Below are positions 1 to 3,000 of a stretch of DNA of 26,967 nucleotides, piece by piece. The stretch's first letter is position 1; each line of letters begins with the position of its first letter. The position numbers are program-made. This DNA comes from a virus. Lineage: Duplodnaviria > Heunggongvirae > Uroviricota > Caudoviricetes. The DNA lies in IMG/VR virus record IMGVR_UViG_2541047926_000013, positions 1-26,967 of that record, one strand, 5' to 3'.

Positions 1-3000
1 ATGTGGGTCAATAAGTATATTGACGATTGCACTGATGAGGATTTAAACGATCGTGACTTTATTGCATCAGTTGTTGACCGGGCTATTTTTCATTTCGCGA
101 TTAATAGTATATGTAATCTTGGGGATAATAAAGATGCAATGCCCATTGAACAATGTACTTTTGATGTAGAAACTAAGAATGACCTTCCCTCCACGGTTCA
201 GCTATTTTATGAGGAATCTAAGGATAATGAACCTTTAGCGAATATACATTTTCAAGCAATAGGTTCTGGTTTTTTAACGTTTGTTAATGCCTGCCAGGAA
301 CATGATGACAACAGCTTAAAATTATTTGCTTCGCTGTTAATTTCACTTTCATATTCTAGTGCCTACGCAGATTTATCAGAAACAGTGTATATTAATGAAA
401 ATAATGAGAGCTACCTGAAAGCTCAGTTTGAAAAATTATCTCAACGTGATATGAAGAAGTACCTGGGAGAGATGAAGCGTCTGGCTGATGGGGGAGAAAT
501 GAATTTTGATGGCTATCTGGATAAGATGTCACATCTGGTGAATGAAGGAACGCTCGATCCTGATATTTTAAGCAAAATGCGAGATGCTGCACCACAATTA
601 ATTAGCTTCGCGAAGTCGTTTGACCCAACCTCAAAGGAAGAGATTAAAATACTTACAGACACTTCTAAATTAATTTATGATTTGTTCGGGGTTAAATCGG
701 AGAAATAATATGTGAAGTTCTTCGATAGTATGGAAGGCATTATATAAAAGGACCCAATATTTATTGGGTTCTTTTTTCTCTATCAATGCTATTAGCAGGG
801 AGATATATCACCAGAGTTTAATGTGTGATTTTTTATTTATCGTCGAACCTGGATTGTTTATCATTGGCCTTAACAAAGTTAACGGCTAATAAGATTATTT
901 CCATCACTTCGTGAGAGCTTCATGCCTTGAGAGGATCTCAATTTTCTTTTGCAATGAGACAGGCGCTTCCTGTTGTTATGGTATAGTACCCCGCTATTGA
1001 GCCTCCTGAACAGTGATGCTGAATAACATAACCCCATGATATATCGATAAAATAATCTCTACATTTGAAAATGCACGGTAATTCTGAAATGCAAAAAATC
1101 AACCAAACCAGCGCAATGCCTGAAAAAACTGACGTTCACTGGAGTGGTCGGTTTAGCGTTGCACCAATGCTCGATAGGATGTACCGTTTTTGAAAAACAA
1201 GTAGTTATACACTTTGTGGGAGCCTATTGGGAACCCGGTGTTTTCATTTCAAGGTGTAATCCATGCCGGGCATCAGAATGAGATATAATGAGATTTTTAG
1301 TGTTCCGCTTGAGAGTCTATGATGCTTACCCTAGACGAGATAGGTCAATCTGTACGTAACAATATCCAGTTGATTATTGATCATGTCGGCTTACCTCTTG
1401 CTGTTGGTCCGCTCAGTGATGATGATTACAAGATTCTGTGTGGTGGCTATGGTGAGCTTGAATGGGACTATGCGTTAAGCACCTATGGCAACTCCAGAGA
1501 AAAGTATGAGTTCTGCATAAAACTTGTTCAGCAAGGTCGGGTTCAGGGAATACCATCAGGAGCAGCAATTTGTGTTTATGGGGTTGAAGAAAACATCTTT
1601 CGTATCCATATGATCGAAAGGTTTTCTAGAGAAGATGAATCTCACCCATTGAAAGGGCGCATGGTTTTACTCACTCTTATGAGTGCTTTTATATTTTGTA
1701 AAGCTGTTGAATGTAAAGTTGTCCACATTGTAGAGCCAGTACCAGAACTGGTGCAGTATTACGAGTCTTTTGGTTTCCGCATGGAACAGTGCGGTTATGT
1801 GATGTCTGCAGTCATTGATGAGCTGCAGGATATCTTTCTTAAATTTGCTCAGTAGGTATAGACGAGAAGGGTCTACAAATTGTAGGATACCCGTCCAGAT
1901 TACCTTAAAGGTACATCTATGGCAGTCGTTTTGTGCTTAAACTACTAAGAAACGATGTCACCAATCGACATGATCGATTGGCATAAGTTAGCGAAACAAG
2001 CTAGCTTTAAAGAGAGGGTTAGAGACGCCTTTACTGTCTCGGGAGTTTTCTATGAAAGATCAAAAAGCAACCAAGCCACAGGTTAAGTTCGACACAATGA
2101 AAGCATTCGCAGGTATGGGTGCTGCTGTTGAAGTTCTGATGAAGGCTGCTCCTAATGCGTTCACTCACGCTACTGTCTCTGGTAAAGAGCAGCAGGGTAA
2201 GCTTCGTCGTCGCAAAGCAGCATGATCATAGCTGGTGCTTTTTGAAAACCCGCCTTTAGGCGGGTTTTTTCTTTAGTGATGTTCTTTGCCCTTCTGTTTG
2301 CCTGTTCTGACCTGTTCCCACTCGATACGTCCTTCTTCTCGTCTTTTGTCTATGTATTCCGCAAGATCCTGAATATTGATGCAACGTTTTGCTTTTTGTG
2401 ATGTGCCGATGCGATATGTTGGAACTGGCAACTTACAAGCGTTTGCTTTTGCTTCTGCCGTGGCTGGACTCATGCCAAAGTACTTTTGGCTAACTGCTGA
2501 GAGTTCAATGTTAGGGGTATTGAATTCAGCCATCAGTAAAAACAAGGTGTTCATAATTTTCTCCATCAAAACCGGCTGCACCCGGGAAAATCATAATTCT
2601 GTGCTGGTGGCAGGAATTAATTTCTGCCAGATAGCGGAAACATATTTTGCCTGATGACGGGCATCAGCCAGGGCGTTGTGCCGTTCGCCATCGAAAGGCA
2701 TGTCCATTTTGGGGTCGAATCCGATGAAACGCCCAAGCGTAACGATCGTGCGTACATCGTGGTCATTCCAGTACGCCCATGGACAGATTTGTCCTGCTCG
2801 CTCATAAGCCCCACGTAAAATTACGTTGTCGAAGGTGGCTCCGTTACCCCAGACTTTTAAATATTTCGTATTGTCTGCGTGCCGGTTAATGAAATGGTTC
2901 AGTTCAGAGAGTGCATCGCTGATCGACAAAGTATCATCAATACAGATTGCAGCTCGTGCTTCAGGGCTTTGTTTCAACCACCACAGGATGGTATCGCCGT

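Follow-up and report, generated by a model that had tools for sequence, protein, structure and literature searches.

We analysed a stretch of 26,967 nucleotides (nt) of viral DNA (hereafter, the window), positions 1 to 26,967 of the Caudoviricetes record IMGVR_UViG_2541047926_000013 in IMG/VR, and focused on its left end, where an initial annotation had placed a single AT-rich cargo segment (1-2274) at the end of a prophage. The three plus-strand open reading frames (ORFs) it described are present, at 1-708 (ORF1, 235 amino acids, aa), 1319/1322-1855 (178 or 177 aa depending on the ATG used, 1319 giving 178 aa) and 2052-2225 (57 aa, orf57), and its AT-richness was borne out, with a G+C content of 37.1% in 1-1174, 42.6% in 1175-2272 and 51.1% in the remaining window. 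The segment is, however, not one unit: positions 1-1174 are colinear with E. coli K-12 MG1655 at 99.74% identity and correspond to yjbM, the intergenic region that follows it and the initial 104 nt of dusA, so that the most AT-rich part is host DNA. The phage DNA of the cargo part is 1175-2272 only, and it holds two genes, gp23 and gp24 of phage mEp460, which lie between attP and the excisionase gene xis and are both annotated as hypothetical. The product of the first very probably has a GNAT fold, and the second, orf57, is its constant partner. The features of the region are as follows.

1-708, plus strand: host gene yjbM (DUF2713, 235 aa); full-length Pfam DUF2713 match at E 4e-166; 99.74% identical to, and colinear with, K-12 b4048
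746-775, plus strand: host intrinsic terminator 3' of yjbM, a 13-pair stem followed by a T run (terminator scan), within the K-12-colinear block
776-1070, plus strand: host yjbM-dusA intergenic region, colinear with K-12 upstream of dusA; presumed to contain the dusA promoter
1071-1193, plus strand: cut 5' end of host dusA; host DNA up to 1174 (104 nt), then phage DNA to the stop codon, giving a 40-aa chimeric peptide
1167-1174, no strand: attL crossover core, ATGCTCGA
1175-1321, plus strand: phage P' arm and sequence leading up to the module, 97% identical to mEp460; it includes GGGAACC (1229) and a -10-like TATAAT (1284-1289)
1322-1855, plus strand: gene for a divergent, acidic, predicted GNAT-fold protein of 177 aa (mEp460 gp23, PHROG 4350)
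1856-2051, plus strand: structured spacer or leader of orf57 (minimum free energy -60.3 kcal/mol, z -3.56 against shuffled sequences), including a hairpin at 1961-1981
2052-2225, plus strand: gene for a basic 57-aa protein, the constant partner of the GNAT gene (mEp460 gp24, PHROG 2741)
2245-2268, no strand: bidirectional intrinsic terminator with perfect 11-nt arms (2245-2255 / 2258-2268), an A run on one side and a T run on the other; it closes the module and is shared with the xis operon that converges on it
2273-2581, minus strand: PrtN-family excisionase gene with which the phage backbone begins, given for context (Pfam PyocinActivator, E 4e-23; PHROG 1300 excisionase; annotated as excisionase in mEp460)

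The junction in dusA and the cassette beside it

The left end of the window is the junction between the chromosome and an mEp460-type lambdoid prophage inserted in the 5' end of E. coli dusA, a point that leaves hardly any room for doubt. Phage mEp460 (NC_019716) matches the window at 97% from position 1068 onward. When K-12, the window and mEp460 were aligned three ways, the window carried the host-type base at all 17 host/phage-differing positions up to 1166 and the phage-type base from 1175, which places the crossover within ATGCTCGA, common to K-12, the window and the mEp460 attP. The RefSeq annotation of a strain identical to the window has a partial tRNA-dihydrouridine synthase at 1071-1175. 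The attP of mEp460 (read in this relative, not in the window) contains a 107-nt stretch that matches the dusA 5' end at 84% identity and encodes MHDNPEIQK...APMLD; it should restore dusA at the other end of the prophage, beyond the window. The mEp460 integrase gene adjoins attP on the opposite side of the core, and both int and attR lie outside the window.

Prophages and islands that carry DusA-specific integrases and integrate in the 5' end of dusA are a described family (Farrugia et al., 2015, PMC4482086). The present case shares with these elements and with mEp460 the insertion 104 nt into dusA, the substitute dusA 5' end and the tyrosine integrase beside attP (the last two read in mEp460), and differs in nothing essential; the junction and the integration in dusA are already known. 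This is a textbook junction next to a core gene, yjbM, and should not be mistaken for cargo. The initial annotation had reasoned that ORFs matching core host genes, or occurring in strains free of the prophage, would not be cargo: this proved true of ORF1, which is yjbM, is present in prophage-free K-12 and is full relative to its K-12 counterpart rather than truncated as suspected, and the other two ORFs are genuine phage cargo. Among 5426 complete E. coli genomes, 4381 match part of a 2.4-kb query from this region and only 332 match it at a coverage of at least 80%.

Two observations concern the att site itself. The chimeric ORF at 1071-1193, translated and compared with K-12 DusA, consists of 35 DusA residues followed by RMYRF and stands behind an intact host dusA upstream region; the phage in its attP form has a counterpart to this peptide, encoded by its dusA look-alike. 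GGGAACC / GGTTCCC motifs occur on both sides of the att core (mEp460 attP, locus L002, ~3435-3480; window 1229-1235) and are candidate arm-type integrase sites.

The phage cargo is a self-contained accessory cassette (a 'moron') made of a -10-like box, the 177-aa gene, a 196-nt spacer, the 57-aa gene and a terminator. The -10-like TATAAT (1284-1289) lies a constant distance ahead of the GNAT start codon in copies from the dusA slot and in copies from a slot between the antiterminator gene Q and the lysis genes (the Q-lysis slot), and in the Citrobacter copy a terminator precedes it. In the window, the terminator scan found no terminator on the way from the interrupted dusA to the GNAT gene, which makes read-through from the host dusA promoter plausible. 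The terminators that the initial annotation had associated with the ORFs were recovered as hairpins at 746-775 and 2244-2269 (5 sites in the scan against 1.7 +/- 1.4 expected), and the second of these, with its perfect 11-nt arms between orf57 and the convergent xis, is indeed bidirectional as proposed. A close sequence variant of it follows the small gene in the Citrobacter Q-lysis slot, and other hosts carry an equivalent hairpin and T run. Wherever the downstream sequence was read, a hairpin lies 3' of the small ORF, with a T run in lambdoid copies and none in the Photorhabdus tail cluster or in locus L030. A direct repeat, AATGAGAT, occurs twice with 10-nt spacing at 1277-1294 and overlaps the -10-like box.

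The spacer contains the inverted repeat noted earlier at 1961-1981, with arms of 8 nt instead of the 7 first reported (CCAATCGA / TCGATTGG) and a 5-nt loop. The Salmonella copy of this hairpin has a compensatory change (CCAATCGG / CCGATTGG) and the Citrobacter copy a wobble change, and in distant copies the spacer is swapped for other short hairpins. A search of 700-2700 against Rfam returned nothing above the gathering score, and the low-scoring matches all fell on the terminator hairpin. A 43-aa ORF that overlaps the hairpin (1955-2086) was considered and set aside, as it matches no family and is not conserved in other hosts.

The initial annotation had also proposed comparing the same prophage position in related genomes, and the slot did prove variable among sister dusA prophages. 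In Lys8385Vzw, SKA5 and ~200 E. coli genomes it is occupied by a Panacea-domain protein, a 128/139-aa protein and the same 57-aa gene, and homology to the window restarts just 13 nt upstream of the orf57 ATG. In this variant, whose Panacea protein is SocA-antitoxin-like (locus L004, 2870-4071; loci L015-L017, ~2480-3690), orf57 is kept as a third gene ~40 nt downstream, and one strain (L017) carries an additional CoiA-like gene after it. In the Stx phage 1720a-02 (locus L006, 906-1454) the slot holds, without orf57, a predicted 182-aa membrane protein with weak membrane-protein-like Pfam matches. The case thus illustrates an attP-adjacent variable slot that swaps toxin-antitoxin-type cargo while retaining one small gene. 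The cassette resembles phage morons and other variable prophage cargo in its G+C content below that of the backbone, its own terminator and its -10-like box (a putative promoter), as well as in its occurrence in at least four kinds of slot, its presence or absence among relatives and the replacement of its slot content by a Panacea toxin-antitoxin pair. It differs from known defence and toxin-antitoxin slots in that it matches no PADLOC defence model.

The two proteins and their pairing

The 177-aa protein has, with a high degree of confidence, a GNAT fold. The initial annotation had guessed as much from the motif YYESFGF, and at the level of the fold this guess holds in the structural model, in its Foldseek neighbours and in the family-profile alignment. 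AlphaFold2 modelled the protein from a 42-sequence alignment with a mean confidence (pLDDT) of 91.4 and a predicted template modelling score (pTM) of 0.88, and the predicted order of secondary structures is that of a GNAT (beta1-alpha1-alpha2-beta2-4-alpha3-beta5-alpha4-beta6). Foldseek searches of the PDB and BFVD returned top matches that were overwhelmingly GNATs (probability 1.00, best E 4.7e-7), including TacT3, AtaT, KacT, 7byy, NatD, RimI, SpeG and glycylthricin acetyltransferase, at sequence identities of 6-15%. A broad family profile searched against PDB sequences weakly matched nourseothricin acetyltransferase (E 0.011), with AAC(6') also among the best, and in the alignment to the former HPLKGRM falls on the RGHGVG of motif A and YYESFGF on motif B. 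Across 62 family members, W48 is invariant and Y147, the residue of YYESFGF that aligns with the motif B tyrosine, nearly so; the family is set apart by a long beta4-alpha3 loop that carries an HPLxGR motif. Engineered HIV gp41 constructs also matched a profile of close homologues in the PDB sequence search and were judged spurious, the match covering a short GG-rich stretch only.

At the sequence level the protein matches nothing in Pfam, NCBIfam or PADLOC and only PHROG 4350, a family to which no function is attached. The defence-model comparison suggested in the initial annotation was likewise negative: neither the gp23 nor the gp24 protein matches PADLOC-DB 2.0.0 defence models at E up to 1. 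The family is small, since only 85 representatives were found at E <= 0.001 among 1.84 billion proteins, and its 48 homologue clusters at 90% identity are all from Enterobacterales. We infer that the protein is an active acyl-CoA (coenzyme A) transferase, as the near-invariant tyrosine of YYxSFGF suggests.

The second gene, orf57, appears from its codon changes to be a real coding gene: against the Citrobacter copy it differs by 15 synonymous and 2 non-synonymous codon changes, and its ratio of non-synonymous to synonymous divergence (dN/dS) is 0.03-0.18. Its product matches PHROG 2741, again a family without a function. In the AlphaFold2 model (pLDDT 65) it forms one helix (residues 15-37), described as amphipathic, between flexible basic ends, and its tail, E-x-Q-G-K/R, is conserved. 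Residues D14, G23, A25, P34, Q48 and G49 are invariant in the family, and the most distant copies still retain the tail motif as E-x-x-G-(K/R/P). A ribbon-helix-helix (RHH) antitoxin was considered for this protein and rejected on the single-helix model, itself of low confidence (pLDDT 65).

In the initial annotation the 57-aa ORF stood on its own, a view that the comparison of loci overturns. A homologue of the small ORF lies 80-250 nt downstream of the GNAT gene in 17/17 distinct pairs examined. A search for related loci with the alignment of close homologues yielded 7 loci. The pairs occupy at least four prophage positions in phages of different types, with hosts that range from E. coli to Shewanella:

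dusA slot: E. coli and Salmonella prophages
Q-lysis slot: Citrobacter, Enterobacter and phage Eeyore
pre-holin slot: Edwardsiella
tail gene cluster: a Photorhabdus myovirus
P2-like elements
further genomes: Pseudescherichia, Franconibacter, Enterobacter mori and one Shewanella

Some of the orf57 homologues are unannotated or uncalled downstream of GNAT homologues, as in phage Eeyore (locus L027, 3795-3956) and in locus L031 (~4120-4290). The linkage persists down to 30% GNAT identity, unrelated phage backbones included. Over the 17 pairs, the pairwise identities of the two proteins are correlated (Mantel r 0.95, with 0/5000 permutations as high), which at this level of analysis shows a long shared history rather than contact. 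Both genes are under purifying selection. The two products also differ sharply in charge, the 177-aa protein having an isoelectric point (pI) of 4.8 (net -10) vs 10.5 (net +7.6) for the 57-aa protein, and the family medians being 4.5 and 10.3, respectively.

In the 5426 complete E. coli genomes, the GNAT gene is matched in 358 (at full length in 357), the whole cargo is covered in 357, or ~6.6%, including O157, O111 and O145 strains, and orf57 is found in 562. In E. coli the enzyme gene therefore never occurs without the small gene, and the reverse does occur. The cassette is also present in many Salmonella, where one allele of the small gene was found on 735 contigs. Judged by sequence comparison, the two genes are shown to be one evolutionary unit, and we think it likely that they are a functional pair as well.

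Proposed mechanism and alternatives

The best overall explanation, to which we give a probability of about 0.5, joins the dusA junction to a two-gene cassette of an enzyme and its partner. An mEp460-type phage entered the host dusA by recombination in its 5' end, inside ATGCTCGA, and brought along what would be an accessory module of lysogenic-conversion or defence type. In the lysogen, the cassette would be expressed from its own candidate -10-like promoter, with read-through from the dusA promoter also likely. The 177-aa protein would act as an acyl-CoA transferase and the basic 57-aa protein as its dedicated partner, whose conserved tail might dock in the acidic substrate groove of the enzyme; once docked, the small protein could be either an inhibitor (an antitoxin-like control) or an acetylation substrate.

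Since the small gene survives without the enzyme gene and the enzyme gene is never found without the small one, a controlling or neutralising partner is favoured, and inhibitor-type control of the enzyme is our tentative choice, held at clearly less than even odds. A more specific proposal is less likely still: that the pair is a two-component phage accessory system, in which the basic partner controls the acidic acetyltransferase or is acetylated by it through the E-x-Q-G-K tail, in the manner of a toxin-antitoxin or effector-modifier module that might serve phage exclusion or host manipulation.

Several findings weigh against the enzyme-partner account. Motif A of the 177-aa protein, HPLKGRM, is non-canonical with respect to Q/R-x-x-G-x-G/A, so that CoA binding is a prediction; 0/62 family members reach threshold with the Pfam GNAT models, a single one attaining PF00583 at E 0.006; and the model of the small protein is of low confidence. 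The Q-lysis and tail-cluster slots would allow the cassette to be read within late lytic transcripts. Between the E. coli and Salmonella copies (window 1322-2225 and locus L018, 3274-4174), synonymous divergence (dS) is 1.33 for the GNAT gene and 0.08 for orf57; because these values disagree, recombination must have occurred inside the cassette, a recombinant mosaic whose break lies in or near the spacer. One allele of the small protein serves enzymes that are just 65-70% identical, and close relatives diverge less in the small protein than in the enzyme, which is atypical for a type II toxin-antitoxin system, as are the toxin-first order and the 82-250-nt spacer. Finally, orf57 stands intact behind the unrelated Panacea toxin-antitoxin pair in ~200 E. 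coli genomes, and since it persists there without the GNAT gene, it may have a role of its own. As far as sequence comparison goes, the dS discordance, the restart of homology 13 nt upstream of orf57 and the conservation of the small protein argue against a narrowly co-adapted toxin-antitoxin pair.

Some of these findings would fit an enzyme that works for itself. The substrate of the GNAT protein might be a small molecule, such as a polyamine or a compound resembling aminoglycosides or streptothricin, or else a protein of host or foreign origin, such as a basic host protein. Its acetylation would directly benefit the lysogen or phage, the small protein being a mere regulator or an independent neighbour. 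The best PDB sequence matches, nourseothricin acetyltransferase and AAC(6'), point in this direction, as do glycylthricin acetyltransferase and SpeG among the fold matches, the persistence of orf57 without the GNAT gene and the dS discordance, which shows that the genes are separable by recombination. These matches are weak, however (E 0.011 at best), fall on the CoA-binding core and are silent on the substrate, and an irrelevant small protein leaves the strict pairing at 17 loci and the co-divergence (r 0.95) unexplained. We therefore consider this reading improbable, although it fares best among the alternatives.

Little behind it comes a function in the lytic cycle, in which the enzyme would serve anti-defence or host takeover during infection and not in the lysogen. 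In Citrobacter, Enterobacter and Eeyore the cassette stands between Q and the lysis genes, and in Photorhabdus it stands inside the tail cluster, where it lacks a T-run terminator; these positions would suit such a role, for which AcrVA5, reportedly a GNAT anti-CRISPR, offers a precedent. In the window, though, the cassette is read from the att side, opposed to the early-left operon, closed by a terminator and facing the host dusA promoter, all of which favours expression in the lysogen, and even the Citrobacter copy has the preceding terminator and the conserved -10-like box expected of an autonomous cassette. On balance we find this lytic role doubtful.

The initial annotation had raised, on thin evidence, an acetyltransferase toxin, and a classical GNAT type II toxin (TacT-, AtaT- or KacT-like) would acetylate charged tRNA, stop translation and be held in check by a cognate antitoxin. 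TacT3, AtaT, KacT and 7byy are indeed among the structural neighbours of the 177-aa protein, the layout comprises two genes, the slot is filled by a toxin-antitoxin pair in sister phages, and in E. coli genomes no GNAT gene is found apart from its small partner. But the toxin structures score no better than NatD, RimI and SpeG, at identities of 6-15%. No RHH/DUF1778 gene lies upstream, where the sole plus-strand ORF crosses the att core; the partner stands downstream, after 196 nt and outside any tight operon, and its low-confidence model is a single helix without a DNA-binding fold. Moreover, tRNA-binding toxins need a basic surface, whereas this enzyme is strongly acidic, its family having a median pI of 4.5. 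These points leave the classical toxin quite unlikely. We give as little credit to two unrelated accessory genes that are merely linked, one of them perhaps encoding a catalytically dead GNAT-fold protein: the non-canonical motif A, the missing Pfam match, the recombination inside the cassette and the occurrence of orf57 with other cargo would agree with it, but the association holds down to 30% GNAT identity, in unrelated backbones and in Shewanella, and purifying selection on both genes with an invariant tryptophan and a near-invariant tyrosine speaks against it.

Compared with known systems, the enzyme-partner cassette differs from the GNAT/RHH type II systems (TacAT, AtaRT, KacAT, ItaRT) in that its partner gene lies downstream beyond a 196-nt structured spacer and theirs upstream, in that the partner is a single helix in a low-confidence model instead of an RHH domain, and in its acidic enzyme and the lack of any Pfam GNAT or DUF1778 signal. 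NatD/Naa40, RimI and Gcn5 act on basic proteins; the 177-aa protein is 10-13% identical to them and has its family-specific long beta4-alpha3 loop with HPLxGR, and acetylation of the 57-aa protein is conjectural. In YjhX(TopAI)/YjhQ, said to combine a small toxin with a GNAT-family antitoxin, a small protein is likewise paired, by description, with a GNAT-family protein; here, however, ~200 genomes have the small gene alone and none has the GNAT gene alone, and a small-toxin model would predict the reverse. The literature search found no paper that names the cassette accessions or the PHROG identifiers, and nothing specific on prophage GNAT defence or toxin-antitoxin systems.

The cassette thus belongs with the GNAT-based two-gene modules, as a variant yet to be characterised. 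No surprising mechanism emerges from the analysis; the cassette is widespread, cleanly delimited and easy to test. It is compact, it spans prophages of E. coli, Salmonella, Citrobacter, Enterobacter, Edwardsiella, Photorhabdus and Shewanella, and its enzyme escapes curated sequence models yet is confidently modelled as a GNAT fold and tied to one small basic protein. If the two proteins do form an enzyme-inhibitor or enzyme-substrate pair, this would be a new architecture for acetyltransferase-based toxin-antitoxin or defence modules and would provide a function for PHROG 4350 and 2741, so far without any.

Further observations

The host gene at the left edge is part of a larger one in other strains. 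The yjbL and yjbM genes of K-12 are halves of one 328-aa DUF2713 gene, which is intact in some strains (E. coli O121:H19, locus L016, 777-1763, compared with window 1-708 and locus L001, 3723-4708). In AH04, a strain identical to the window, the DUF2713 gene is annotated as frameshifted, and the start of the window coincides exactly with the yjbM ATG.

The structured spacer was also compared with sRNA-17, an ArcA-regulated small RNA (sRNA) of E. coli K1 RS218 that was described from an mEp460-like prophage and has 'degenerative' copies (PMC7719688). This identity was rejected for the spacer, as the sRNA-17 sequence maps to 7148-7192 instead. At that position, the window carries the first ~45 nt of sRNA-17 as a GGTACC-containing hairpin and then diverges, which, by its sequence, looks like one of the 'degenerative' copies.

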